Below are positions 1,193 to 64,000 of a DNA stretch of 64,000 bases, one piece after another. The position numbers and the translations under genes were made by a program. This DNA is from Candidatus Krumholzibacteriia bacterium (GTDB lineage Bacteria; Krumholzibacteriota; Krumholzibacteriia; JAJRXK01), in contig JBGPIA010000002.1 of the NCBI GenBank assembly GCA_041484665.1, positions 42,045 through 106,044 of the forward strand, read 5' to 3'. The notes below the pieces were generated by a model, which saw only the letters and a list, made by a program, of their open reading frames with translations, made no database searches and was not told where the DNA came from. How positions within the stretch are numbered: the stretch's first letter is position 1; each line of letters begins with the position of its first letter.

Positions 1193-2080
1193 ATGGTCAA
1201 GCTGCGCAAGACGTACGACCGCTGGCTCGAGGCGCTGTGCCTCGACATGGAGGACAAGTTCGTGGCGTTCCTCCGCCAGACGGGGCGCGCGGTGGAGATC
1301 GACAACGTGGTGGTCGATTCCCAGGAGTTGTTCGCGCGCCACTTCACCTGTGATACGACGACCTGCGACCCGACCCTGCGTGGCCGCGCCATGCGCTCCT
1401 GTTGCTGCGAGCTCACCGTCGACCTGACCTGGGACGAGGCGCGCCGGATCGAGGAGCACCTGCCGGACATCCGGGCAGTCATGGAGGAGGCGGCGCAAGC
1501 GCCAGGGCTCGCGGTCCTCGACCGCGGCGCGTTCCACGTCATGGCCGACGACTTCTCGCCGCAGCTGGCCAAGCACCGCTGGGGCTGCGTATTCGCCTAC
1601 CGCGAGGAGGGCCGCTCGTTCCGTTGCGCCGTGCACGCGGCGGCGCTGCGCTTGGGCCTGCCCATCACAGCGCTCAAGCCCAACATCTGCAGTCTGTGGC
1701 CGCTGGCGCTCATCGAATACCAGACGGGTCAGTACGTCCTCACGGCCCTCACCGACGAGACCGGGGGGCTGCTGGAGGACGACGAGCAGCACGCGCGCTA
1801 CGCCTGCCTGAAGAATGACCGCAAGGGCCCGCCCCTCTATCGTGAGTTCACGGGGCTGCTCGCCGAGCTGTTCGGAGCGGAGTTCATCGCGCGCCTGGAC
1901 GCGGAGTACGAGCGTTGGGAGGAGCGGGAGCGGTCGCAGCCCGCTGCCACCGCCGTGCCGGCGCAGCCGCCGCCGACGCCGGTGCGGCGCCCGCGCAACG
2001 GCGGGCGGCCGGCCGAATCTCATCCTACGGATACGCAGCCGCCGCGAGGGCGCCGCGCTGCGGATGCGCGTCACCGGTAG
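1193..2080 (+). CDS. Cys-rich conserved hypothetical protein with a Pro/Arg-rich C-terminal tail
   Basis: ATG at 1193 follows a GGGAGGAG Shine-Dalgarno sequence. It contains the Cys cluster CDTTTCDPTLRGRAMRSCCCE and further Cys residues. It is divergent from fbp, and its 3' end overlaps the convergent gene by 10 nt. Confidence 0.55.
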   Translation: MVKLRKTYDRWLEALCLDMEDKFVAFLRQTGRAVEIDNVVVDSQELFARHFTCDTTTCDPTLRGRAMRSCCCELTVDLTWDEARRIEEHLPDIRAVMEEAAQAPGLAVLDRGAFHVMADDFSPQLAKHRWGCVFAYREEGRSFRCAVHAAALRLGLPITALKPNICSLWPLALIEYQTGQYVLTALTDETGGLLEDDEQHARYACLKNDRKGPPLYREFTGLLAELFGAEFIARLDAEYERWEERERSQPAATAVPAQPPPTPVRRPRNGGRPAESHPTDTQPPRGRRAADARHR

Positions 2081-4080
2081 TTGGCGCTCAGCTCGCCGGC
2101 TCCCTGTGGCAGCGCGACCAGGCGCAGCTCGCGGCCAAACGACGAGGAGCGGCGGCTCTCCGCAGGCTGCCAGGACGCTTCCCAGCTGGTAAGCGTCAAC
2201 CGGCGCCAGTGCAGCGGCAGCGCCACGGCCAGTCCCGCCTGCGCGGCGCCGGCCGGGGCCTCCACATGGACGCGCAGCAGGCCGCCGCCGTAGACCCAGC
2301 GCACGTGCGCCTGGGCGCGCAGCTCCCAGAAGTCCAGGAGCGCGGTCATCGTCGCCAACTGGTGGTTGCGACGCTGCGCGAGCTCCGGTAGCGCATCCCA
2401 CATCCGGAACAGCTCCGCCGACGGGGTCTCCCCGAAGACGTCGGGGTGGAAGAGCAGCGCGACCGGACCGTGTCCGCCGACGGCATTGGTTCGCAGCCAG
2501 CGGTCCACCCGCGCGCGATCGACGCCCCCATCGGTGTCGCCCCAGAGGAACGGTACCTCCCAGAGCGGGTAGGCGAGCCCGCGCCGATCGATGGGGCGGA
2601 AGGGGACGGCGCTGCCGAACAGCCAGCCCGCGGCACCGTGGTCCGGGCCGTAGCTCGAGTCGCCGCGGAAGCCCGCGCCCACCAGCCATCGCCAGCCGCG
2701 GTCCACGTCGTCGGGCCAGAGCAGGGAGTGGTTGCGATTGAGCGTCAGCGGCGTCCCGGCGGGTAGGCGCGCCACGAGGCCCTCTCGCTGCTCCACGATC
2801 GACGGCAGCTGGGCGAGCGGCTGGAAGCGCCACGCGCCGATCCGCCGGCGGGGCGAACGCTCGTCCTTCCAGGTGGCCCCCACCGGCAGCCGTGCCTGTA
2901 GCCCAATCTCGGCGCCGTCGGCCAGCGGCCCCCCCTCACCTTCTACCGTGAGCCGCGCATCGGGCGCCATCAAGTACAGCGTGGACGGAGCTCCGCGTCC
3001 GGCCTGGGCGCGCGTCATCCAGCGGGACGTGTCGCGCCAGCCGTCGTCGTCGTGCGTCAGGAGCACCCATCCGTCGCGCGCCAGCGGGGCCGGCCAGACG
3101 CTGGCCCACGGAGCGGGAGCGAGCTCGGCATCAAACAACGCCGCGATCCAGGCGTCCAGCCATGGTGCGTCGGCCTGCAGCAGCGACCGCGTTGCGACGA
3201 GGTCGTTGGTCTCGCCGGGGCCGGCGAGCACGCCCGCGTAGCGATCCGGCAGATGGAAGCCGGGGTCCGGCACGCCCTGGCGAATGCTCAGCGCGAGGTC
3301 GCCGACGTCCAGCGCGCAGATGAGCCACGCACCCGCCCCTTCGTCCAGCCGCCACAGCGCGGGGCGGCCTCCCATGTCCAGGATGGGGCGGGCGAGGGCG
3401 CGCGCCGAGGCCGCGGGCGCATAGCGGGACACGCGCACGGGCAGCGGCAGCGGTGGTGGGTCGGGCAACGGCACGTCGAGCGTGGGAGCCCGCAGGCGTG
3501 GCGCGGGCGCCCAGGTCAGCTCGGGCACGACCTCCTCGCCCTGCAGGTCCAGGCCCATCTCCTTGGCCCAAAGCGGGGGCGGGGCCTCCAGCACCACGAC
3601 CAGTCCCTGCGAAACGTGTGGGCGCAGCGCCGATACCCACCCCGCGTCCAGTCCGGCCAGCGTCCGGCGCGGTAGCACCAGCACCGCGCGGTTCTGCAGC
3701 GCTGCGTCGATGTCGCGCCCGACCTCTTCGGTGGCCAGCACGTCGCAACCACCAAAGGCCTGGGTGAGGACGTTGGACCACTCGAGGTCCGCCGCGCGCT
3801 GTGCCGGTGTGCGCGGAGCGCGGCCCTTGTACGTCTCCCAGCGCACCGCCAGGAGCACGGGATGGTCCGTCGCGCGGCGCGGGAAGGCGGCACCGCCTTG
3901 CGGCTGACGGGTGGGCAGGTGGATCGGATGGGCGTCGCACCAGAGCGCAGCGGCGCACAGCACCAGCAGCACGCCGCTCAGTCGCGCCCGTGCGCGTCGG
4001 CGCCGGCCGGCGGGCTGCGGGCGGGTCCGGGCCGGACCCGCAACTCCCGCACCGCGCGAGCTCGGCTCGAAGCCGATCAT
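2071..4080 (-). CDS. Exported ~669-aa protein, paralog B of a tandem pair, with a possible deacetylase-like domain
   Basis: N-terminal hydrophobic anchor LSGVLLVLCAAALW. Blocks are shared with the neighbouring paralog (LLTHDDDGWRDTS; NRNHSLLW; LDSSYGP; LFHPDVF) and loosely recall CE4/NodB deacetylase motifs. It has a 4-nt ATGA overlap with the upstream gene. Confidence 0.6.
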   Translation of the reverse strand: MIGFEPSSRGAGVAGPARTRPQPAGRRRRARARLSGVLLVLCAAALWCDAHPIHLPTRQPQGGAAFPRRATDHPVLLAVRWETYKGRAPRTPAQRAADLEWSNVLTQAFGGCDVLATEEVGRDIDAALQNRAVLVLPRRTLAGLDAGWVSALRPHVSQGLVVVLEAPPPLWAKEMGLDLQGEEVVPELTWAPAPRLRAPTLDVPLPDPPPLPLPVRVSRYAPAASARALARPILDMGGRPALWRLDEGAGAWLICALDVGDLALSIRQGVPDPGFHLPDRYAGVLAGPGETNDLVATRSLLQADAPWLDAWIAALFDAELAPAPWASVWPAPLARDGWVLLTHDDDGWRDTSRWMTRAQAGRGAPSTLYLMAPDARLTVEGEGGPLADGAEIGLQARLPVGATWKDERSPRRRIGAWRFQPLAQLPSIVEQREGLVARLPAGTPLTLNRNHSLLWPDDVDRGWRWLVGAGFRGDSSYGPDHGAAGWLFGSAVPFRPIDRRGLAYPLWEVPFLWGDTDGGVDRARVDRWLRTNAVGGHGPVALLFHPDVFGETPSAELFRMWDALPELAQRRNHQLATMTALLDFWELRAQAHVRWVYGGGLLRVHVEAPAGAAQAGLAVALPLHWRRLTLTSWEASWQPAESRRSSSFGRELRLVALPQGAGELSANYR

Positions 4081-6011
4081 GGCTGCCCCGCGCCGCCGTA
4101 CACGGCGACGATGGTGTGTTCGCCCGCTGGAAGCGGGATCTGCACCCAGCCCCAGCGCTCCGCCGGCGGCGCCGGCAGCGTCCCACCATCGAGTTCGATG
4201 GCGCGCAGCAGCCCCAAGCCCGCCGCGCTCGGAGTGAGCTCGAGCGCTTGGCCTTCTCCCACGACGTGGAGCTGGAAACGGCGCCGACCGCGGCCCGCGT
4301 CCGCCTCCACCAGGAGCGCGCGTCCCTGCAGGCGAGCGTGGCGGAAGGCGAGGTAGTGGCTCATGCTCATGACCGGATGGCGGTGATGGGCCGCCGCCGA
4401 GAAGCTCTGCAGCAGGCCGCGCATGCGGAACGCGTCGGGGTTTCGCTGCATGGTCGCCGTGTGGAAGATCGGCGTCAACACGCAGTGGTAGCCGGCCTCC
4501 GAGTCGGCCAGCAGCTGCTCCTGGAGCGCCGGATCGTAGCGCTTGTCATCCTGGAAGCAGAACGGCAGCTCCAAAAGCGCGAACGGGTACCCGGTGACGT
4601 CGAGCGGGTGGTAGGGACGGCCGGTCTCAAATACGTAGCCGAATCGACCCTCAGCGGGCCCGTAGCTGGAGTCCAGCTCGAAGTGCTGCGCCTGCAAGAT
4701 GCGCAGCGTGCGCGTCCAGTGACCGTCCCAGAGCAGTGCGTGAGTGCGGTTCATCGTCACCGCCGGGGCACCCGCGGGCAGGCGCCGCTGCAGCGCCTGC
4801 ACCTGGTCGGCGAGATTGAGCTCCTTGGCCAGGGGGCGCCAGGGCCCCACGCCGATGCGCCGGACCTGGTGGAGCCAGGAACCGCGGTTCCACTGCAGCT
4901 GCACGTCGCAGCCGGCCTGGAGCATGGCCGACGTCCCGGCCACCGTGATCCGATCGGGGATGGCGAAGAATGTGCTACTGGCGCCCTCGCTCGCCGCGAG
5001 ATCGCTCAAGAACGTCGAGCGATCGCCGAAACTGTCCTCGTCGTGCGTCATGACGAAGAGCCCGGCCGTTCCGGCGGGCAGCGGGCTGAGGCGTGCGGTG
5101 GGCGCCAGCGCGAACCCAGATGCGAGCACCGTGCGCGCCAGCAGGTCGGCCCGCGGCACCCAGGCCACTACGCGCGTAGGGTCGGCCACGAGATCGTCGG
5201 GCTCCACGCCGCGCTCCGGGCCATGGCTGTTGTGCGTTCCGTGTACCGAGAAATCGTCCTGGGGCACACCCTGCCACAGGGCGGTGAGCCAGCGGCCCAG
5301 GTCGCAGGCGAGCACGACAACCGCACCGCGCTCCCACGCCAGACGCCACGCGGCCGCGCCGCCGTCGAGCCAGAGCAGTGCCTGGTCGTCCGGGGGGCAC
5401 GCCGACGGTCGCTGGCACGTCGTGATCACGGGCATCCCGTCCGCCCAACCCGGCGGCGCGTAGGGAAGCATGGGGGCGACGCGGGTCAGGCGGCGCGGCG
5501 CAAACGCCTGCGCCGACAGCCCAACGCGCGTCGGTCGCAACACGCTGTCGTCGGGTTGCTCGAGGATGAGGAGCGAGCCCTGCTCCGCCAACTGGAACAG
5601 AGCAGTCGTGAGGTCGGCGGCCAGCGCACCGCAGGACCGGGTGACCACCGCGACCAGGGGGCGCCCGCGCTCCGTGGTCTTCCGGAGATCCGCCGCCCCC
5701 GCCAGGCGGACGTCGAGGCAGCGCGTGGCTCCGGCCTCTTCCTCGAGCACTGACAGCCAGGCCAGGCTGCAGTCCAGTTGCGCGGAGGATCCCCCGGCCG
5801 CCGCGGCCTCGACCCTGGCGCCGTCGTAGAGGAGCAGCGCCGAGGGTGCTGCGACGGCGGCGGGCGGCTCGGCCGGCTGCTCGGCGTCGGGGTTGTCGAG
5901 CCAGACTGGTTTGCGGCCGTAGTGCTGCGCCACCACGGCCGCAGCGCCGCACAGTGCAAGCAGCGACGCCGCGAGCGCCTTGCGCCTCAACACTCCCCGC
6001 CGCGCGACCAT
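4077..6011 (-). CDS. Exported ~644-aa protein, paralog A of the tandem pair
   Basis: Signal peptide MVARRGVLRRKALAASLLALCGAAAVVA. Blocks homologous to paralog B: VMTHDEDSFGDRS, NRTHALLW, LDSSYGPAEG, IFHTATM. Confidence 0.6.
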   Translation of the reverse strand: MVARRGVLRRKALAASLLALCGAAAVVAQHYGRKPVWLDNPDAEQPAEPPAAVAAPSALLLYDGARVEAAAAGGSSAQLDCSLAWLSVLEEEAGATRCLDVRLAGAADLRKTTERGRPLVAVVTRSCGALAADLTTALFQLAEQGSLLILEQPDDSVLRPTRVGLSAQAFAPRRLTRVAPMLPYAPPGWADGMPVITTCQRPSACPPDDQALLWLDGGAAAWRLAWERGAVVVLACDLGRWLTALWQGVPQDDFSVHGTHNSHGPERGVEPDDLVADPTRVVAWVPRADLLARTVLASGFALAPTARLSPLPAGTAGLFVMTHDEDSFGDRSTFLSDLAASEGASSTFFAIPDRITVAGTSAMLQAGCDVQLQWNRGSWLHQVRRIGVGPWRPLAKELNLADQVQALQRRLPAGAPAVTMNRTHALLWDGHWTRTLRILQAQHFELDSSYGPAEGRFGYVFETGRPYHPLDVTGYPFALLELPFCFQDDKRYDPALQEQLLADSEAGYHCVLTPIFHTATMQRNPDAFRMRGLLQSFSAAAHHRHPVMSMSHYLAFRHARLQGRALLVEADAGRGRRRFQLHVVGEGQALELTPSAAGLGLLRAIELDGGTLPAPPAERWGWVQIPLPAGEHTIVAVYGGAGQP

Positions 6012-7293: not shown

Positions 7294-7710
7294 GTGATGG
7301 CGACCGGCCGTCCGCGGGGACGGGCGTTGCGGCGGCGACCGGGGCTCCACTGGCGGCGGTTCCTGCCGCTGCTGGTCGCCGTGGGCGTGGCGGCGTGCGG
7401 CCGCCATGGTCGCGAGTCCGCCGCGACGGTGCGTGCCGCAACGCCGCTCCCGCCGGTACGCTGGCGCGGCATCGCGCGCGCGCAGCGCTACGTCGTGCGC
7501 GGCTGGTCGGGCGATCAGTTGCTCTTCGAGCTGACGACACGCGACACGCTGCTGGCGCTCAGCCCGTCGCTGCAACAGACGCTGGCGGCGTTCGACTCCG
7601 CTGCGGTCGAAGTGCTGGGGATGGGAGAGCAGGGTCTGATCGGTCGGCAGGCAGTCGTGCTGCGTAGCCCCGGACAACGGGACGGGGGTGGTGCCGGAGG
7701 TGGGATTTGA
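7294..7710 (+). CDS. Small putative lipoprotein (hypothetical)
   Basis: AGGAGG lies 9 nt before GTG 7294 / ATG 7297. It has a lipobox-like LLVAVGVAACG. Its 3' end overlaps the 3' end of tRNA-Leu on the opposite strand by ~22 nt, which lowers confidence. Confidence 0.35.
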   Translation: MMATGRPRGRALRRRPGLHWRRFLPLLVAVGVAACGRHGRESAATVRAATPLPPVRWRGIARAQRYVVRGWSGDQLLFELTTRDTLLALSPSLQQTLAAFDSAAVEVLGMGEQGLIGRQAVVLRSPGQRDGGGAGGGI

Positions 7711-7775
7711 ACCCACACGAGCCGAAGCCCACGGGATTTTGAGTCCCGCACGTCTGCCAGTTCCGCCACTCCGGC
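7689..7775 (-). tRNA. tRNA-Leu (anticodon CAA), 87 nt with a long variable arm and encoded CCA
   Basis: The reverse complement reads GCCGGAGTGGCGGAACTGGCAGACGTGCGGGACTCAAAATCCCGTGGGCTTCGGCTCGTGTGGGTTCAAATCCCACCTCCGGCACCA. Anticodon stem CGGGA/TCCCG flanks the loop CTCAAAA. The T-loop is GTTCAAATC. Confidence 0.9.
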
Positions 7776-7905: not shown

Positions 7906-7981
7906 GGGGCCATAGCTCAGCTGGGAGAGCGCATGACTGGCAGTCATGAGGTCACGGGTTCGAGCCCCGTTGGCTCCACCA
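7906..7981 (+). tRNA. tRNA-Ala (anticodon GGC), 76 nt with encoded CCA
   Basis: GGGGCCATAGCTCAGCTGGGAGAGCGCATGACTGGCAGTCATGAGGTCACGGGTTCGAGCCCCGTTGGCTCCACCA. It has the G3:U70 Ala identity pair. Anticodon loop CTGGCAG. Confidence 0.9.
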
Positions 7982-8051: not shown

Positions 8052-9395
8052 ATGAGCGCGAGCGCGCCTACCGTCGTCTTCTTCGAGGACGCTGGTGTCG
8101 CAGGCCTCTTCCCGCTCACGCTGACCCGACCGGCCTTCGAGCTGCGCAGTGGGGCGCTCAATCTGCGCGAGCGCGTGCAGCTGTGCGCCGGCCCGCGTGC
8201 CGTTGCGGCCTGCGTGCGTCCGGCGCTGCAACCCTTGTTGAGCGCCACGCTGCCCGGCCTGGCCGGCGCAGCGCTCGCCGCGGCCGGACCTGCCGTGTGG
8301 ATCAACGGCCGGCTGCGCGCGAGCGTTGAGACCCTGCGCCGCATGCTGACCCTCCCAGCGGCGCCCTCCCGCGCGCTGCGTGTGGATGGGATGGTGGCCA
8401 TGGCGTGGATCGACGCCGACGCTTCCCTGGCGCTGCGACCGGCCGCCGGCCCCACGCCGCTGCTCGCGCTGCTGGAGTCGTTGCCGCCGGCGGAGGCGAT
8501 CACGGACGTGGGGCTCTTCTCCCATCCGTGGGAAATCGTCCAGGCCAACGGTCGGCTGCTGTGCGACGACTTCCGTACGCTGCGCGACGGCACCCCGATC
8601 GCGCGCGAGATCTTCGGCGTCCGCTTCGAGCCCGGGGCGGGCGCCCGCGCGCTACTGGCCCGCGACGCGTACGGCGCGGCGCAGCAGGCCATCCTGTACC
8701 CTGGGGTGCACGTGCTGGAGGAGGAGAACGTACGGTTCGGGGCCGGCTGCCAGCTCAAGCCTGGCGTGGTCCTGGACGCGCAGCAGGGCCCGATCCTGAT
8801 CGGCGCCGGCGCGCTCCTTGCGCCCAACGTCGTGGTGGAAGGCCCGGCGTACATTGGCCCGGGCTGCACCATCAACCCGGGCGCGCGCCTGCGCGAGGGA
8901 ACGAGTCTGGGAGCGCTCTGCAAGGTGGGCGGAGAGGTTGAGGAGTCGGTCGTGCTCGACCTGAGCAACAAGCAGCACGATGGCTTCCTGGGGCACGCCG
9001 CCCTGGGCTCCTGGGTGAACCTGGGCGCCGACACCAACGGGAGCGACCTCAAGAACAACTACGGGACGGTGAAGGTCGATCTCGGGGAAGGGGAGATCGA
9101 CAGCGGACTGCGCTTCGTCGGGCCCACTATCGGCGATCACTCCAAGACCGGCATTAATACGATGCTCACCACTGGGGCCGTGATCGGTGTCTGTTGCAAT
9201 GTGTACGGAGGCGGCTTTCCTCCTCGGTTCGTACCGAGCTTCCGCTGGGGCGGCCCCGAGGGCTGGGTTGAGCACCGGCTGCCGGCGGCGTTGGGTACGG
9301 CCCGCACGGTGATGGGGCGGCGTCAGGCGGTCTGGCTTCCCGAGCACGAGGCGCTGCTTGCCGACGTGCACGCCGCCACCGCGCGCCAGCGCTGA
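8052..9395 (+). CDS. GlmU-like putative sugar nucleotidyltransferase with a C-terminal left-handed beta-helix (hexapeptide repeats)
   Basis: N-terminus MSASAPTVVFFEDAGVAGLFPLTLTRPAFEL (nucleotidyltransferase-like). C-terminus has imperfect hexapeptide repeats: GPAYIGPGCTINPGARLREGTSLGALCKVGGEVEESVV...LGSWVNLGADTNGSDL. Alternative ATG at 8028. Confidence 0.6.
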   Translation: MSASAPTVVFFEDAGVAGLFPLTLTRPAFELRSGALNLRERVQLCAGPRAVAACVRPALQPLLSATLPGLAGAALAAAGPAVWINGRLRASVETLRRMLTLPAAPSRALRVDGMVAMAWIDADASLALRPAAGPTPLLALLESLPPAEAITDVGLFSHPWEIVQANGRLLCDDFRTLRDGTPIAREIFGVRFEPGAGARALLARDAYGAAQQAILYPGVHVLEEENVRFGAGCQLKPGVVLDAQQGPILIGAGALLAPNVVVEGPAYIGPGCTINPGARLREGTSLGALCKVGGEVEESVVLDLSNKQHDGFLGHAALGSWVNLGADTNGSDLKNNYGTVKVDLGEGEIDSGLRFVGPTIGDHSKTGINTMLTTGAVIGVCCNVYGGGFPPRFVPSFRWGGPEGWVEHRLPAALGTARTVMGRRQAVWLPEHEALLADVHAATARQR

Positions 9396-9417
9396 CCGCG
9401 CGGCGACGGCGGCGTTG

Positions 9418-10137
9418 ATGCTGCTCATCGGAGAGACTCTCACCAGCAGCAGCCCTGCGGTCAGGACCGCGCTGGTCAGCCGCGACGCTGCCTGGCTCAC
9501 CGCCTGCGCCCGGCGGCAGCTTGCGGCCGGCGTCGAGCTGCTCGACTGCAACGCTGCCGTGCTGGGAGCCGGGGAGCGCGCGGCGCTGGTGTGGTTGGCG
9601 GAGCTGCTGGAGGGAGCGGTGGCGGCACCGCTGTGCCTGGACAGCTCCGATGTGGCGGTGCTGGCGGCGGCCGGCTGCGGCCGCCGGTTCCCACCCGTGC
9701 TGAACTCGGTGGCCGCCACTCCGCCGTGGCCCGAGCTGATCGTGGAGCTGGTGGGCGCGGGGGCGCGGCTGATCGTGCAGCTGCGCGAAGGGCGCCAGCT
9801 GCCCCACGACGCAACCACGCGACTGCGCTGGGCGGAGCGGGCGCTGGCAGGCGCGGCGCGGGCGGGTCTGCCTGCGGAGCGGATCCTGCTCGATCCCGTG
9901 CTGCTACCGTGGGGACACGACCTGGTGCAGGGCGCGCCGCTTCTGGCATTCGTGGAGGATGCGGCCACGCGCTGGCCCGCCGTGGCGACCATCGTGGGGC
10001 TCTCCAACGCGTCGTTTGGCGCCGCCGGCCGCTCGGAGATCCACCGCGCCTGGCTGCGCGCTCTCAAGACAGCCGGGCTGGGCGCGGTCATCCTGAACCC
10101 GTTCGACGCCGAGCTGATCGCGATCGCCCGGACCTGA
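9418..10137 (+). CDS. Pterin-binding (DHPS-like TIM-barrel) protein of the methyl-THF:corrinoid methyltransferase family (MtrH/AcsE/MetH pterin domain-like)
   Basis: MLLIGETLT... compares with the AcsE N-terminus MLIIGERIN. LCLDSSD compares with LCLDSTN. LLDPVLLP compares with YIDPLILP. IVGLSNASFG compares with GLSNVS(F)G. The ORF in the track extends to 9358, but the family start is at ATG 9418. Confidence 0.65.
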   Translation: MLLIGETLTSSSPAVRTALVSRDAAWLTACARRQLAAGVELLDCNAAVLGAGERAALVWLAELLEGAVAAPLCLDSSDVAVLAAAGCGRRFPPVLNSVAATPPWPELIVELVGAGARLIVQLREGRQLPHDATTRLRWAERALAGAARAGLPAERILLDPVLLPWGHDLVQGAPLLAFVEDAATRWPAVATIVGLSNASFGAAGRSEIHRAWLRALKTAGLGAVILNPFDAELIAIART

Positions 10138-10455
10138 GTCAGTTTACCGACCCCTCGCGGAATCTGGCGTATCGGGCCTTGGCCGGACACCGCGGCTCCG
10201 TACCCGTCGTAGCCAGTAACCAATTACCCCCTTTCAAGATACGCGTTCGTGCCTGGAAGTCGGTGCTCGCCGTTCGATGCGGCACGGGACTTGATGCTGT
10301 AGGGCTCTGCGTCGCCTGCGTGGCGCGCGACTTGCCGGGCGGCTCCTTCATCTTCGGTCTTCGACCAGCCATTGCCGGCACGCGGCCGCCGCGGACGACG
10401 CACAACTTCTACTTCCGGTCCGGCGCGCTCCAGTGCGCCGTGCGACCGCCGATCC

Positions 10456-10481
10456 GGCCCCGCGCCCTCCGTCGCGGGGCC
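10456..10481 (+). terminator. Perfect 9-bp GC hairpin (GGCCCCGCG-N8-CGCGGGGCC) followed by GTTTCGTT, abutting the -35 of the BMC promoter
   Basis: Seen directly in the sequence. It is terminator-like but lies 320 nt downstream of the nearest stop codon, so its function is unclear. Confidence 0.3.
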
Positions 10482-10487
10482 GTTTCG

Positions 10488-10517
10488 TTGACACCCGCGC
10501 GCGACCGCTGGTAGGGT
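10488..10517 (+). promoter_or_regulatory. Putative sigma-70-type promoter of the BMC operon (TTGACA-N18-TAGGGT)
   Basis: TTGACA at 10488-10493; TAGGGT at 10512-10517; ~85-nt GC-rich leader before the BMC-H start. Confidence 0.4.
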
Positions 10518-10600
10518 GCCTTTGTGCGTGCAGCCGCGCGCGCCCGCGCGGGCCGGCGTCACGCCAGCGGTCGCTCATCAGGCAAGGAGCAAGTACGGCG

Positions 10601-10891
10601 ATGAAGGAAGCTCTGGGGATGGTCGAGACGCGCGGCTTCGCCGCGATGGTCGAGGCGGCGGACGCCATGGTGAAGGCGGCCAACGTGGTGCTGATCGGCT
10701 ATGAGAAGATCGGCGCCGGCTACTGCACGGCGATCGTGCGCGGCGACGTCGCGGCGGTGAAGGCCGCCACCGATGCCGGCGCGGCGGCAGCGGCGAAGGT
10801 TGGCGAGTTGATCACCGTGCACGTCATCCCGCGCCCGCACACCAACGTGCAGGAGCGGTTGCCGATCGGCGGGGTCGCCGATGGCAAGTGA
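10601..10891 (+). CDS. Bacterial microcompartment shell protein, BMC-H hexamer (PduA/EutM/CcmK family)
   Basis: [60 protein letters not shown]...VHVIPRPH is a canonical Pfam00936 BMC domain. RBS AAGGAGC upstream. Confidence 0.9.
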
Positions 10892-10912
10892 CAGCGCGGG
10901 CAGGAACGACCC

Positions 10913-11200
10913 ATGCAGCTCGCCGAGGTGATCGGCACGGTGGTGGCCACGCGCAAGGAGCCGACCCTTGCCGGCATGAAGCTGCTCGTGCTCAAGGTGA
11001 TCGACCTGCAACGCCAGCCGCTGGGGCAGTATCTGGTGGCGGCCGACGCAGTGGGCGCCGGGACGAGCGAGATCGTTCTGTTCGCCGCCGGAAGCTCGGC
11101 CCGCCTCACCGAGATCACGAAGGACCGTCCGGTGGACGCCGTCGTGATGGCGATCGTGGACGCCCTCGAGGTAGGTGGCACGTTCCTCTACGAGAAGTAA
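10913..11200 (+). CDS. BMC vertex protein, BMC-P pentamer (EutN/CcmL/PduN family), copy 1
   Basis: MQLAEVIGTVVATRKEPTLAGMKLLVLKVID...YLVAADAVGAGTSEIVLFAAGSSAR...VDAVVMAIVDALEV matches the EutN/CcmL fold pattern. Confidence 0.85.
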   Translation: MQLAEVIGTVVATRKEPTLAGMKLLVLKVIDLQRQPLGQYLVAADAVGAGTSEIVLFAAGSSARLTEITKDRPVDAVVMAIVDALEVGGTFLYEK

Positions 11201-11297
11201 TCTGCAGCGCGACGGCACTCCGGGCGGGCGCCGCGCCGTCGACCGGTCTCCTCCCGCCGGCGCCCGGCGCCCGCGGACGCAAGGGCGGGCAGGCGCC

Positions 11298-12806
11298 ATG
11301 TCGCTGAGCGAAGAGCGCATCTCCGAGATCGTGCAGGCGGCGCGAGCGCGGGCGGGGCTTGACGCGCCGTTGCGCGCCCCGGCGGCGCACGCGCCGGCCG
11401 GCTCCGGCCCGGCCCACGGCGGCGAGGCCGGCGGCCTTGGCCGCTCGCTGCCCGGCGGCGGCCACGGGCCCGACAGCGCCATGCAGGGCATCTTCCCCAC
11501 GCTCGAGGAGGCGGTGCGCGCCGCGGCGCACGCCTTCGAGCAGTTCCGCGGCTTCCCGCTGGAATCGCGCAAGGCGATGATCGATTCGATCCGCCGCAAG
11601 CTGCGCGCGAATGTCGACCTGCTCGCGCGCCTGGCCGTGGAGGAGACCGGCCTGGGGCGCGCCGAGGACAAACGGGCCAAGAACCTCCTGGTGATCAACA
11701 AGTCACCCGGCCCGGAGATCCTCGTGCCCGAGTGCCAGACCGGCGACGATGGTCTGGTGCTCACCGAATGGGCTCCGTACGGCGTGATCGGCGCGATCAC
11801 CCCGGTGACCAACCCCAGCGAGACGGTGATCAACAACGGGATCGGGATGCTCGCCGCCGGCAACGCCGTCGTGTTCAACGGGCACCCCGGCGCCAAGGAC
11901 GTCACGCGGCTGGCGATCTCGCTGATGAACGAGGCAGCCCAGGAGGCCGGCGCGCCGCGCAACCTGCTCACCGCAGTGCGCGAGCCCACCATCGAGACGG
12001 CCCAGGCGCTCATGCGCCACCGGGACGTACGGTTGCTGGTGGTGACGGGAGGCGCGGCGGTGGTTAAGGCGGCGCTGCAGTCAGGCAAGCGCTGCATCAC
12101 GGCCGGACCCGGCAACCCGCCGGCCGTCGTGGACGAGACCGCCGATCTGGCGGCCGCCGCCCGCGACATCACGCTGGGGGCCTCCCTGGACAACAACATC
12201 ATCTGCACGGCCGAGAAGCTCGTGATCGTGGTCGAGGCGGTGCGCGACGCGCTGCTGCGCGAGCTAGGTAGACTGGGCAACGTGATCTTGCGCCAGGACC
12301 AGATCCCCCTGCTCTCCAAGGTAATCTTCGAGGAGATGGCGGGACCACGGCAGCGCGCCCGCATCGACCGGCAGTACGTGGGCAAGAACGCCCGCGTAAT
12401 CCTGGCCAAGCTCGGCATCCAGGCGACCGACAGCTGCCGGCTGGCGATCGTGCCGGTCGACAACGATCATCCGTTGCTGTGGACCGAGCAGATGATGCCG
12501 GTCCTGCCCGTCACCTCGGCGCCGGACGCTGAGACGGCCATGGATCTGGCCGTGGCCATGGAGGGGGGCAACCGGCACACGTTCATCATGCACAGCAAGC
12601 GTGTGGACCGTCTCAGCGCCATGGCGCGCAAGTGCGACGCGTCGATCTTCGTGAAGAACGGCCCGAACATCGCCGGGCTGGGCCAGGGCGGCGAGGGCCC
12701 CACGAGCTTCACCATCGCGACGCCGACGGGGGAGGGGATGACCGATGCCCGCTCCTTCTCGCGGCGCCGGCGCTGCACGTTGGTGGGCGAATTCCGCATC
12801 GTCTGA
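11298..12806 (+). CDS. CoA-acylating aldehyde dehydrogenase (EutE/PduP type) with an N-terminal encapsulation peptide
   Basis: ALDH core: GNAVVFNGHPGAKDV...NNIICTAEK (catalytic Cys). The N-terminus MSLSEERISEIVQAARARAGL is an amphipathic helix. It is followed by a ~45-residue Ala/Gly/Pro linker before the catalytic domain starts at MQGIFPTLEEAV. The track ORF starts at 11175, but the ATG at 11298 is the likely start. Confidence 0.88.
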   Translation: MSLSEERISEIVQAARARAGLDAPLRAPAAHAPAGSGPAHGGEAGGLGRSLPGGGHGPDSAMQGIFPTLEEAVRAAAHAFEQFRGFPLESRKAMIDSIRRKLRANVDLLARLAVEETGLGRAEDKRAKNLLVINKSPGPEILVPECQTGDDGLVLTEWAPYGVIGAITPVTNPSETVINNGIGMLAAGNAVVFNGHPGAKDVTRLAISLMNEAAQEAGAPRNLLTAVREPTIETAQALMRHRDVRLLVVTGGAAVVKAALQSGKRCITAGPGNPPAVVDETADLAAAARDITLGASLDNNIICTAEKLVIVVEAVRDALLRELGRLGNVILRQDQIPLLSKVIFEEMAGPRQRARIDRQYVGKNARVILAKLGIQATDSCRLAIVPVDNDHPLLWTEQMMPVLPVTSAPDAETAMDLAVAMEGGNRHTFIMHSKRVDRLSAMARKCDASIFVKNGPNIAGLGQGGEGPTSFTIATPTGEGMTDARSFSRRRRCTLVGEFRIV

Positions 12807-12846
12807 GCCGCGGCGGGAGCCACCTGCCGTCGGCGACCGGGGGAGC

Positions 12847-13458
12847 ATGGACGGGCGTACCGCGCTGGGGCTGATCGAGTGTCGGAGCATGGCGCGGGGA
12901 ACGGTTGTCGCCGACGCCATGCTCAAGACCGCGCGCGTGCACCTGCTACTGTGCGCGCCCGTTTCGCCGGGCAAGCTGCTGGTGGGCCTGCGCGGCGGCG
13001 TCGCCGATGTGGAGGCCGCGATGGCGGCGGGCCTGCACGTGGCGGGCGACTGGCTGGAGGACGCGCTCTTCATCCCGCGCCTGCACGACGAGGTGGCTGC
13101 TGCGTTGTTGCGGCCGCTGGGGCAGGGCGTGCTCGAGTCCCTGGGGATCGTCGAGACCGCCACGGTGGCGGCAGCGTTGCGTGCTGCCGACGCATCGCTC
13201 AAGGCGGCGGGCGTGCGGCTGCTCTCGATCCGGTTGGCCGCGGGGATTGGGGGCAAGGCCATCTACTTCGTCACCGGAGCGCTGCCCGACGCGCAGGCGG
13301 CCGTCGACGCGGGATGTGTCGCGGTACAGCACGCGGCGCTGCTCGTGCACTGCGAGGTCATCCCGCAGCCCCACCCCGATCTGGCCTGGTACCTGGCCCA
13401 GGGTCCGGGGCAGGCGTCCGCCCCCGGCGGAGTGTGGACCCTGCCGCAGGAGGAGTGA
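12847..13458 (+). CDS. Tandem-domain BMC shell protein (BMC-T, PduT-like)
   Basis: Two Pfam00936-like domains. Domain 1: ALGLIECRSMARGTVVADAMLKTARVHLL...SPGKLLVGLRGGVADVEAAMAAG (compare the PduT segment [24 protein letters not shown]). Domain 2: SLGIVETATVAAALRAADASLKAAGVRLL...AGIGGKAIYFVTGALPDAQAAVDAG. 203 aa. Confidence 0.8.
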   Translation: MDGRTALGLIECRSMARGTVVADAMLKTARVHLLLCAPVSPGKLLVGLRGGVADVEAAMAAGLHVAGDWLEDALFIPRLHDEVAAALLRPLGQGVLESLGIVETATVAAALRAADASLKAAGVRLLSIRLAAGIGGKAIYFVTGALPDAQAAVDAGCVAVQHAALLVHCEVIPQPHPDLAWYLAQGPGQASAPGGVWTLPQEE

Positions 13459-13459
13459 G

Positions 13460-13870
13460 GTGCAGCTGGCGCGCGTGCTGGGGACCTGCGTGGCCACGCG
13501 CAAGGTGGAGAGCCTGCGCGGACTGCGCCTCTTGATCCTACAGCCGCTCACGTTCGACCTGGAGCCGCGCGGACCGCACGTGATCGCCGCCGACGTGGTG
13601 CGGGCGGGGCGGGGCGAGCTGGTGTTCTTCGTACGTGGGCGCGAGGCCGCCAATTCGTTGCCGCAGCCCTTCTGCCCCATCGACGCTGCGTGCGTGGGAA
13701 TCGTGGACGAGCTGGGCATGGTGGCGCTGACCGGGGCCACGGACAACGCATCGCGCGAGGCTGCGGGGCGCCCCGTGGCCGCCGTGCGGGCGCAGGATGC
13801 CGCGGCCGCCGGCACGCCACAGGCCGCTGCGCTTGTCTGGAGGGTGCGCCAGGGAGGGGAGATGCCGTGA
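13460..13870 (+). CDS. BMC-P pentamer (EutN/CcmL family), copy 2, GTG start
   Basis: VQLARVLGTCVATRKVESLRGLRLLILQPL...HVIAADVVRAGRGELVFFVRG...IDAACVGIVDELGMV. The start lies 2 nt after the BMC-T stop. It has an Ala-rich C-terminal extension. Confidence 0.8.
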   Translation: MQLARVLGTCVATRKVESLRGLRLLILQPLTFDLEPRGPHVIAADVVRAGRGELVFFVRGREAANSLPQPFCPIDAACVGIVDELGMVALTGATDNASREAAGRPVAAVRAQDAAAAGTPQAAALVWRVRQGGEMP

Positions 13871-14127
13871 AGGTCGCCCGCGTGGTGGGCCAGGTGGTCG
13901 CCACCCTCAAGCACCCGGACCTGGAGGGGTACCACCTGCTGGTCGTCCAACCCGAGCCGGTCGGCGGCCTGGCGGGTGGGCCCGCGCTGATCGCCATCGA
14001 CCGCATCGGGGTCGGTGTCGGCGAGCGCGTCCTGCTGGTGGACGACGGGGCTGCCGCCCGTGGACTGTTGGGCAAGAGCGGACCGGTCCGCAGCATGATC
14101 GTCGGGGTCATCGACGCGGTGGGGTAG
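13867..14127 (+). CDS. BMC-P pentamer (EutN/CcmL family), copy 3, GTG start overlapping the previous stop
   Basis: VKVARVVGQVVATLKHPDLEGYHLLVVQPE...LIAIDRIGVGVGERVLLVDDGAAAR...VRSMIVGVIDAVG. Confidence 0.8.
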   Translation: MKVARVVGQVVATLKHPDLEGYHLLVVQPEPVGGLAGGPALIAIDRIGVGVGERVLLVDDGAAARGLLGKSGPVRSMIVGVIDAVG

Positions 14128-14767: not shown

Positions 14768-14863
14768 ATGCCCTGCGGCCGCAAGCGCAAGCGCAAGAAG
14801 ATCGCCACCCACAAGCGCAAGAAGCGCCTGCGCAAGAACCGTCACAAGAAGAAGGGCAAGTGA
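14768..14863 (+). CDS. 31-aa highly basic peptide, likely ribosomal protein bS22 family (AURKAIP1/DUF1713-like); absent from the ORF track
   Basis: AAGGAG lies 8 nt before the ATG. MPCGRKRKRKKIATHKRKKRLRKNRHKKKGK resembles mycobacterial bS22 (..[25 protein letters not shown]..), as recalled from memory. It ends 28 nt before the rnr start. Confidence 0.45.
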   Translation: MPCGRKRKRKKIATHKRKKRLRKNRHKKKGK

Positions 14864-63344: not shown

Positions 63345-64000
63345 CCTGCACCGGGCTCTCGAGCAGGTGCGGCTAGCCTACGGCCCGGACGCGCTGGTCC
63401 TGCAGACGCGCAACGTGGTGTCGCGCGCGCAGCACGGCCTGGCGCCGCAGACGGAGGTCGAGGTGATCGTCGCCGACCCCGCAGCCGGCGAGGAGCTCGG
63501 CCCGTACTCCGTGGCGGGGCCGCTGGTCGCTGCGCCGGTGGACGCCGACGCGCAGGACGGGCCGGATGGGGGCGCGAGCGGGGAGCTTGCGCGCCAGCTC
63601 GCGCGCCTGGAGCGGTTGGCGTACCGCGTGGAGGAGATGTCCGCCGCGCTGTCGCCGGCTGCGGAGCTGGCACAGGGCTACCCGCTTGCCGACCGCCTGC
63701 GGGCCGCAGGCGCCGGTGAGGCGACGGTCCGGCACGTCGCGGCCTCGTTCGCGCTGGCGGCCCGCGGGGCCGCGCCCACCGAGGCGCTGGCCCGCCGGCA
63801 CCTGGGCACCTTCCTGCGCACCACGCGTGCGGCGTCCTTCGCGCAGATCCGCGGCGAGCACTGGCTGCTCGGCCGCGCCGGCGTCGGGAAGACGACGCTC
63901 GCGCTGCACCTGGCGGCCCAGCTGCAGCGCGCCGGGCGCAAGCCGGCGGTCGTGGCACTCGCGCCGCGCCACGATGGGGACGTGCGCCGCATCGAAGCGG
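63274..64000 (+). CDS. flhF: Flagellar GTPase FlhF, 3'-truncated at the window end; start uncertain (ATG 63274 or GTG 63331, overlapping the flhA 3' end)
   Basis: N-terminal B-domain-like AVRAASLHRALEQVRLAYGPDALVLQTRNVVSR...EVEVIVADP; later ...LLGRAGVGKTTLALHLAAQL (P-loop). The frame stays open to the end of the window. Confidence 0.65.
   Translation, partial: MPSQNPLPLPSSRPPRTRAVRAASLHRALEQVRLAYGPDALVLQTRNVVSRAQHGLAPQTEVEVIVADPAAGEELGPYSVAGPLVAAPVDADAQDGPDGGASGELARQLARLERLAYRVEEMSAALSPAAELAQGYPLADRLRAAGAGEATVRHVAASFALAARGAAPTEALARRHLGTFLRTTRAASFAQIRGEHWLLGRAGVGKTTLALHLAAQLQRAGRKPAVVALAPRHDGDVRRIEA

Follow-up and report, generated by a model that had tools for sequence, protein, structure and literature searches.

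A MIC7-type bacterial microcompartment operon, related to SPU3, in a Krumholzibacteriota-like lineage

Catalogued counterparts and make-up of the operon

The bacterial microcompartment (BMC) operon described here lies in a 64,000-nucleotide stretch of a Candidatus Krumholzibacteriia genome (GCA_041484665.1, contig JBGPIA010000002.1, positions 42,045 to 106,044 of the forward strand; hereafter "the window"), and its closest described counterpart is MIC7, a locus type catalogued from 6 loci of Ca. Latescibacteria and Ca. Eisenbacteria (Sutter, Melnicki, Schulz, Woyke & Kerfeld 2021, Nat Commun 12:3809, Supplementary Data 2; PMC8217296). MIC stands for "metabolosome with incomplete core" (Sutter et al. 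2021, PMC8217296), and MIC7 loci are described with a standard BMC-H, a more specialized BMC-H, a BMC-P triplet made up of a green-clade member and two neighbors of the grey and orange clades, a satellite BMC-Tdp, and BMC-Ts proteins for which both the pore cysteine and PduS are lacking in four loci (PMC8217296). Their sole enzyme is an aldehyde dehydrogenase (AldDH) that carries an N-terminal encapsulation peptide (EP) and is closest to the AldDH of SPU3 loci, and the function of MIC7 is unsolved (PMC8217296). SPU3 (sugar-phosphate utilization) loci themselves combine an AldDH with pfam01791 (DERA) and pfam02502 (RPI), often as a fusion; their shell is described with a standard BMC-H, a BMC-P triplet of green, grey and orange members, a BMC-Tdp of CcmP-like type and a BMC-Ts that has neither pore cysteine nor PduS partner (PMC8217296).

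Set against these descriptions, the locus is a MIC7-type BMC operon, related to SPU3, from a Krumholzibacteriota-like lineage, and so another example of a known locus type rather than a new kind. It consists of six tightly spaced plus-strand genes (10601-14127, numbered from the first base of the window), encoding in order BMC-H, BMC-P1, AldDH, BMC-T, BMC-P2 and BMC-P3, and every one of the six proteins exceeds its Pfam gathering score, which bears out the identities (one BMC-H, three BMC-P, a BMC-T and an AldDH) given to them in a first-pass annotation made from the sequence alone:

10601-10891, plus strand: BMC-H, hexameric facet protein, 96 aa, ATG start at 10601 (PF00936, E 3.5e-30)
10913-11200, plus strand: BMC-P1, pentameric vertex protein, 95 aa, adjoining BMC-H (PF03319, E 8.8e-29)
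11298-12806, plus strand: AldDH, CoA-acylating, EutE/PduP family, 502 aa (PF00171, E 7.7e-36)
12847-13458, plus strand: BMC-T (BMC-Ts), tandem-domain trimer of PduT-like fold, 203 aa (two PF00936 domains, E 1.7e-36)
13460-13870, plus strand: BMC-P2, 136 aa, first of the adjacent P2/P3 pair (PF03319, E 1.8e-25, residues 1-83)
13867-14127, plus strand: BMC-P3, 86 aa, GTG start (PF03319, E 1.5e-22)

Spacing is operon-like, with a gap of 1 nt between BMC-T and BMC-P2 and the GTG start of BMC-P3 overlapping the BMC-P2 stop codon by 4 nt, and a purine-rich Shine-Dalgarno-like motif precedes each of the six start codons. The likeness to MIC7 extends over both enzyme and shell: the AldDH is the only enzyme of the operon, the other five products being shell proteins; it bears an N-terminal EP and has its nearest counterparts in SPU3; the KAAN and PRPH motifs are present in BMC-H; the three BMC-P form a triplet, P1 next to BMC-H and the other two next to each other; and the BMC-Ts lacks the pore cysteine, with no PduS-like gene among the scanned open reading frames (ORFs) of the window.

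Evaluating the enzyme, we found that the AldDH matches NCBIfam model NF011927 at 609 bits (cutoff 403) and that its best PDB match is the BMC-associated acylating AldDH 5jfl (E 7e-118), its catalytic Cys303 aligning with the modified active-site residue of 5jfn. Residues 3-20 form the EP, LSEERISEIVQAARARAG, followed by a Pro/Ala/Gly-rich linker of ~40 aa, an EP call made from the sequence pattern and linker rather than from the catalogue's EP HMMs. The pattern L-S/T-x-E-x-I-x-x-I/V-A/V is common to orthologs from other AldDH-only loci of the clade and to SPU3 AldDHs, and the first-pass reading of an EutE/PduP-type enzyme with an N-terminal EP was thus sound.

Among the shell proteins, BMC-H carries the standard interface motifs KAAN (in 'MVKAANV') and PRPH (in 'IPRPHT'), matches best, among natural PDB structures, the Haliangium ochraceum HO-5815 hexamer (5djb, E 5.6e-37), and is 94% identical to its ortholog in the related locus L026 (related loci are cited by such numbers below). 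The BMC-T had been called PduT-like, and its best PDB matches are indeed PduT structures 3pac and 3n79 together with 5dih, with a score below the PduT equivalog cutoff (TIGR02526, 103 bits vs 250). Because Ser40 stands opposite the PduT Fe-S ligand Cys38 ('VSPGK' vs 'ICPGK' in the alignment to 3pac), we expect the pore to hold no [4Fe-4S] cluster; in close relatives this residue is S, P or T. The three BMC-P proteins of the window are mutually 34-42% identical, and across 65 loci with a complete triplet the P1, P2 and P3 positions are distinct ortholog classes (identity 55-64% within and 32-38% between classes), the nearest neighbor from another locus falling in the same class for 195 of 195 proteins. 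Such positional ortholog classes argue that the triplet is ancient rather than a local oddity. As a separate observation, BMC-P2 ends in a low-complexity, Ala/Gly/Arg-rich C-terminal tail of ~50 aa with no evident function, and its 136 aa compare with 105-106 aa in L087 and L090, so tail length varies within the lineage.

These results also place two first-pass judgments in perspective. One BMC-H with three BMC-P had been taken for an unusual ratio, whereas the "BMC-P triplet" is documented as a common pattern, characteristic of SPU, HO, ACI, FRAG and MIC types (Sutter et al. 2021, PMC8217296). The novelty of a locus with AldDH as its only enzyme was likewise overstated, since this make-up is catalogued as MIC7 (Sutter 2021, Supplementary Data 2) and an AldDH without obvious signature enzyme occurs in many metabolosome loci (ACI, FRAG1-7, HO, MIC2-7, MUF2-3; PMC8217296). 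The same annotation had considered that the locus might match a defined BMC type with its signature enzyme just outside the operon; the match to a defined type stands, and no signature enzyme lies just outside.

The relation to SPU3 is close in both order and sequence. The two share a core block of identical order, H-P1-AldDH(EP)-Ts(no Cys)-P2-P3, with a single standard BMC-H, a BMC-P triplet and neither phosphotransacylase (PTAC) nor alcohol dehydrogenase in the locus, and identities to SPU3 proteins reach 53-61% for AldDH, 61-75% for BMC-H and 52-65% for P1. Outside its own clade, all best genome matches of the AldDH are loci of SPU3 architecture. This locus differs from SPU3 in having no pfam02502-pfam01791 (RPI-DERA) enzyme, no CcmP-like BMC-Tdp, and no SorC-type regulator of the kind that precedes the block in some SPU3 loci. 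The operon may therefore be described as the SPU3 H-P-AldDH-Ts-P-P core block minus regulator, RpiB-DeoC and BMC-Tdp, a correspondence that reflects descent or common origin.

Relatives, chromosomal site and control region

Relatives were collected by an AldDH scan of one genome per species, which gave the 80 best loci (Thermoanaerobaculia/Acidobacteriota, Marinimicrobia, Myxococcota, Planctomycetota, Verrucomicrobiota, Calditrichia, Actinomycetota). Virtually all of these keep the order H-P1-AldDH-T-P2-P3, and in 62 of the 80 RpiB/DeoC and/or Tdp lies directly upstream of the block, which is the SPU3 arrangement; one such locus, L033, has a SorC-type regulator, an RpiB-DeoC fusion (PF02502 + PF01791) and a permuted BMC-Tdp ahead of BMC-H, with a nucleoside phosphorylase and a phosphopentomutase farther upstream. 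A further 12 loci are truncated upstream, and the remaining six are without RpiB/DeoC/Tdp despite at least 2.5 kb of upstream DNA (L001, L002, L026, L017, L049, L071). The layout of L071 differs, while the other five share the arrangement of the window, as do three further loci without RpiB/DeoC/Tdp that carry the same cassette on long contigs (L087, L088, L090). Nine separately assembled relatives with this arrangement are without RpiB-DeoC and Tdp, the named ones among them being Krumholzibacteriota metagenome-assembled genomes (MAGs), and the closest species-level relatives, again Ca. Krumholzibacteriota MAGs, have AldDH identities of 72% (L026) and 67% (L001 and L002). A protein search with the BMC-Ts added ~25 further close relatives in metagenomes, and L087, L088 and L090 are the long contigs in that set.

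Proteins identical to those of the window occur in GCA_041496785.1 (JBGQFG010000022.1), GCA_041493075.1, JGI metagenomes 3300052992 and 3300053056, and two SRA assemblies, the DNA being at least 99.995% identical in all of them. In one of them a single-base deletion splits the AldDH into 328 + 174 aa (L082, JGI 3300052992, 10386-11893, corresponding to window 11298-12806); the five other assemblies of this population do not have the deletion, which probably reflects an erroneous assembly or else a rare variant.

The AldDH-only loci all sit in one chromosomal backbone. In front of the cassette comes an alternative GlmU (TIGR03991), in some loci joined by a stand-alone pterin-binding protein; behind it follow HU, a basic ORF of 31 aa, RNase R, PilZ, a hybrid kinase and flagellar genes, and a check of the more divergent members L017 and L049 for neighboring enzymes showed the same PilZ, kinase and flagellar backbone. 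In the window (G+C ~71%) the operon is flanked by glmU-like and pterin-binding genes on one side and by HU, the 31-aa ORF and RNase R on the other. A neighbor-joining AldDH tree, which had no SPU5, SPU7, HO or other SPU subtypes among its explicit references, placed the AldDH-only loci outside all SPU3 sequences, five of them as one clade and L017 beside it at the midpoint root. Tree and shared backbone fit an AldDH-only arrangement that arose once and was then passed on vertically at the same fixed site. The six ORFs are intact and syntenic in at least nine independently assembled relatives (AldDH identity 58-72%, BMC-H 72-94%), and the persistence of intact ORFs, EP and promoter-like element across genomes down to ~58% AldDH identity can be read as signs of a functional locus.

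Two candidate control elements lie ahead of the operon:

10455..10482, plus strand: terminator-like G+C-rich hairpin, then TTTCGTT (terminator scan and sequence reading; consensus match only)
10488..10517, plus strand: promoter-like pair, TTGACA (10488-10493), 18-nt spacer, TAGGGT (10512-10517) (sequence reading)

The hairpin probably marks the end of the upstream transcription unit with the glmU-like and pterin-binding genes, and the promoter-like pair, which sits 84 nt upstream of the BMC-H start, may by its match to the consensus be the operon's own promoter. Its pattern is conserved upstream of BMC-H in L001, L049 and L017 (GTTGACA...TAGGGT / TAGCGT / TAAGTT), the other spacer sequence not being conserved; an automatic promoter scan made no call because the -10 hexamer matches at only 3/6 positions. 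The first-pass annotation had placed the start of the locus at 10488, and this proved to be the first base of TTGACA rather than a codon, BMC-H beginning at 10601. No riboswitch or regulatory RNA was found upstream of the operon, Rfam at gathering thresholds returning two tRNAs only across the whole window.

Proposed function and rival explanations

Having an AldDH as the sole enzyme, the operon raises the matter of where its aldehyde is made, and the search for cargo, a signature enzyme and further shell genes covered the window and ~9 kb to its left. Among the sizeable window ORFs scanned with Pfam there was no DERA, RPI, class II aldolase, Eut/Pdu enzyme, PTAC, alcohol dehydrogenase or PduS, the scans identifying FBPase, DUF3109, an EamA transporter, RNase R, PilZ, kinases and a long flagellar cluster; gene calls in the ~9 kb to the left gave an ABC transporter, a PF01663 phosphodiesterase and FBPase, with no BMC-related enzyme. 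By tblastn, SPU3 queries (SorC, RpiB-DeoC, Tdp, class II aldolase, SatD, PyNP, phosphopentomutase) had no match in the window, the L033 RpiB-DeoC fusion in particular finding none below E = 0.3 there and none in L001, L002, L026, L017 and L049, and the L033 Tdp likewise showing BMC-Tdp to be absent from the window. The window's own shell proteins, searched in the same way across the window, returned the six known genes only, and no extra BMC-H turned up in the window (tblastn) or in the ~9 kb upstream (gene calls), the cassettes of relatives also having a single BMC-H. The first-pass statement that the operon is without PTAC, alcohol dehydrogenase and signature enzyme thus extends to the scanned window ORFs and ~9 kb upstream, and its suggestion of an uncharacterized metabolosome, or one with its signature enzyme encoded elsewhere, was in our judgment right. 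No functional study on MIC7, or on microcompartments under the name stem Krumholzibacteri, surfaced in the literature.

With moderate confidence, we favor the reading that this MIC7-type operon encodes an SPU-related, acetaldehyde-oxidizing metabolosome whose aldehyde source is encoded elsewhere. BMC-H and BMC-Ts would tile the facets of an icosahedral shell, assembled as in the HO model, with BMC-P pentamers capping its vertices, and the amphipathic N-terminal EP would draw the AldDH into the lumen, where the enzyme would convert a short-chain aldehyde, CoA and NAD+ to acyl-CoA and NADH. By descent from SPU3, acetaldehyde would be the most likely substrate, and its source within the shell may be an enzyme whose gene lies elsewhere in the genome, with a DERA-type aldolase as the likeliest candidate and a class II aldolase as the second. 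Acetaldehyde is put forward because DERA of SPU compartments makes it from deoxyribose-5-phosphate, as characterized experimentally (Dwyer, Sutter & Kerfeld 2024, PMC11585597), and because most SPU AldDHs are placed with the acetaldehyde-using EUT1 branch (PMC8217296). Dwyer et al. suggest that acetyl-CoA exits through BMC-Tdp (PMC11585597). With no PTAC or alcohol dehydrogenase present, as in SPU3, cofactor handling is left unexplained.

Several points weigh against this reading, some touching the class and others the chemistry. The MIC7 assignment follows the catalogue's feature descriptions rather than its shell-protein HMMs, the clade labels (H_marine, Ts_drab, green/grey/orange BMC-P) being likewise presumptive. 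The second, specialized BMC-H and the satellite BMC-Tdp of the catalogued type are found neither in the window nor in the ~9 kb upstream, and the reported MIC7 hosts are Latescibacteria and Eisenbacteria, whereas the nearest named relatives here are Krumholzibacteriota MAGs. The proposed substrate has a single basis, the relatedness of the AldDH to SPU3 enzymes at 53-61% identity. The aldehyde-generating enzyme, PTAC and alcohol dehydrogenase were not found in the window or ~9 kb upstream, so that, with no aldehyde source nearby, the central mechanistic step depends on an unseen gene.

That gene may be something other than DERA, a case we consider unlikely: an off-locus pfam00596 class II aldolase, or an EutABC+EutL "EUT module", would make the substrate a fuculose/rhamnulose-phosphate-type sugar or ethanolamine. 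Satellites of this kind are reported for related types (PMC8217296); the class II aldolase occurs in SPU5, ACI, PVM and MUF2, and the EUT module as a satellite of HO, SPU3 and SPU6. A class II aldolase directly follows P3 in the SPU3 relatives L033, L048 and L062, and the SorC-type sugar regulator of some SPU3 loci is absent here. The window, however, has no class II aldolase or Eut gene, and SPU3, with DERA as its signature enzyme, supplies the closest counterparts of the AldDH and of all five shell proteins. Dispensing with a signature enzyme altogether, the shell and AldDH may instead form a minimal organelle, a sink into which acetaldehyde or some other small aldehyde diffuses from the cytosol or environment, a reading to which we give a low probability. 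AldDH is the sole cassette enzyme in every clade member seen, no dedicated regulator accompanies the cassette with its own conserved promoter-like element, and the arrangement is stable across deep divergence, all of which would suit such a sink; yet a shell around AldDH alone would slow access of the substrate and trap CoA and NAD+ without recycling enzymes. The accepted rationale of metabolosomes, moreover, is to confine an aldehyde made inside the shell, and we know of no characterized BMC that works as an AldDH-only aldehyde sink. More broadly, a self-sufficient minimal metabolosome, whether an AldDH-only sink or a compartment served by a signature-enzyme family not yet linked to BMCs, strikes us as improbable, and if true it would be a BMC mode without characterized precedent.

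Since signature enzyme, regulator and Tdp are all missing relative to SPU3, and the AldDH is frameshifted in one assembly (L082), the locus could also be imagined as a non-functional, decaying SPU3 remnant after loss of DERA/RPI/Tdp. We disfavor this account as very unlikely: the six ORFs stay intact and syntenic in the independently assembled relatives counted above, the catalytic Cys, EP, Shine-Dalgarno motifs and promoter-like element are conserved, and the single-base deletion is missing from the other five assemblies of the population. A metabolosome with its aldehyde source, of the DERA type or another aldolase, encoded off the locus is the reading we carry forward.

Neighboring observations, significance and comparison with known systems

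Two genes of the upstream flank were tried as parts of the system and rejected. The NTP_transf_4/hexapeptide gene, considered as hidden cargo, matches the alternative bacterial GlmU (TIGR03991, 353 bits) and is therefore housekeeping, and the pterin-binding gene was rejected as a component because it is absent from L001, L087, L017 and L049. The latter (9358-10137, plus strand), a stand-alone gene directly upstream of the BMC promoter-like element, encodes a protein resembling methyltetrahydrofolate:corrinoid methyltransferase (NF005719, 139 bits, below a cutoff of 259); L002, L026 and L090 carry it, and a 29%-identical homolog lies just after the SPU3 locus in L021 (12131-12829, minus strand). 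On the downstream side, between HU and RNase R, the 31-aa hyper-basic ORF MPCGRKRKRKKIATHKRKKRLRKNRHKKKGK (14768-14863, plus strand) is almost identical in L087 (11907-12002) and L090 (10299-10394) and appears to resemble the small ribosomal protein bS22 of Bacteroidota and mycobacteria.

Farther out, two divergent genomes have a conserved pair ~4-10 kb ahead of the cassette, a PF01663 phosphodiesterase/nucleotide pyrophosphatase (~730 aa) beside a class I FBPase (L091 6397-9671, which lies upstream of the window start, and L087 795-4057); it is suggestive given the proposed nucleic-acid/sugar-phosphate role of SPU and may be plain synteny. A divergent tRNA gene pair (7692-7775, minus strand, and 7906-7978, plus strand) lies between the EamA transporter and glmU-like genes, and two adjacent minus-strand ORFs (2071-4080, 669 aa; 4077-6011, 644 aa) have a good coding signature and no Pfam or NCBIfam match. 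From ~19200 to its end at 64000 the window carries a flagellar cluster (FlgF/G-like rod proteins, FlgA, H, I, K, L, flagellin, FliW, S, D, FliF, G, I, L, M, N, P, R, FlhB, FlhA, a sigma-54 activator and kinases), which indicates a motile member of this candidate lineage. In a metagenome contig (P0030, JGI 3300047160), a related BMC-Ts (52% identity) occurs in a fragmented, FRAG-like layout, with a CsoS1D-like Tdp and BMC-H, then four unrelated genes, then AldDH and Ts, and no BMC-P nearby.

The locus does not amount to a new category, since the 2021 catalogue already covers both AldDH-only "incomplete core" loci and the BMC-P triplet. What it adds are MIC7-type loci in Krumholzibacteriota-labeled MAGs and several metagenomes, against a catalogue count of 6 loci, and one fixed chromosomal site for the cassette in the lineage (glmU-like ... 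HU, RNase R, PilZ), with no regulator. The view of the operon as the SPU3 core block minus DERA/RPI/Tdp yields a concrete hypothesis for MIC7, in which DERA or another aldolase would be supplied from off the locus. The six genes, with shell components limited to one BMC-H, one BMC-T and three BMC-P, further offer a compact candidate for synthetic shells that compares with the HO system.

That comparison can be drawn further. With the HO BMC of Haliangium ochraceum (PDB 5v74, 5djb, 5dih) the locus shares a BMC-P triplet, a PduT-like BMC-T1 and an unsolved function. HO BMC-T1 also has Ser at the pore position, and the HO gene order differs from the order here. HO has two BMC-Tdp, whereas the window has none, and its hosts are Myxococcota. 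In HO type I loci two BMC-P lie in a satellite locus with an aldolase, and the HO AldDH is closest to SPU5/SPU7 rather than SPU3 (PMC8217296), whereas the nearest relatives of the AldDH described here are SPU3-type loci in the genome scan and in our tree (drawn without SPU5, SPU7 and HO AldDH references). With the PDU and EUT systems (PduP/EutE, PduT, PduN/EutN, PduA/EutM) the operon has protein families in common and follows the same overall logic, an EP-bearing acylating AldDH within a BMC-H/T/P shell. It differs from them in that no diol dehydratase or ethanolamine ammonia-lyase, PTAC (PduL/EutD) or alcohol dehydrogenase occurs among the scanned window ORFs, in that its PduT-like protein is without the Fe-S ligand, and in having three BMC-P where PDU and EUT have one.

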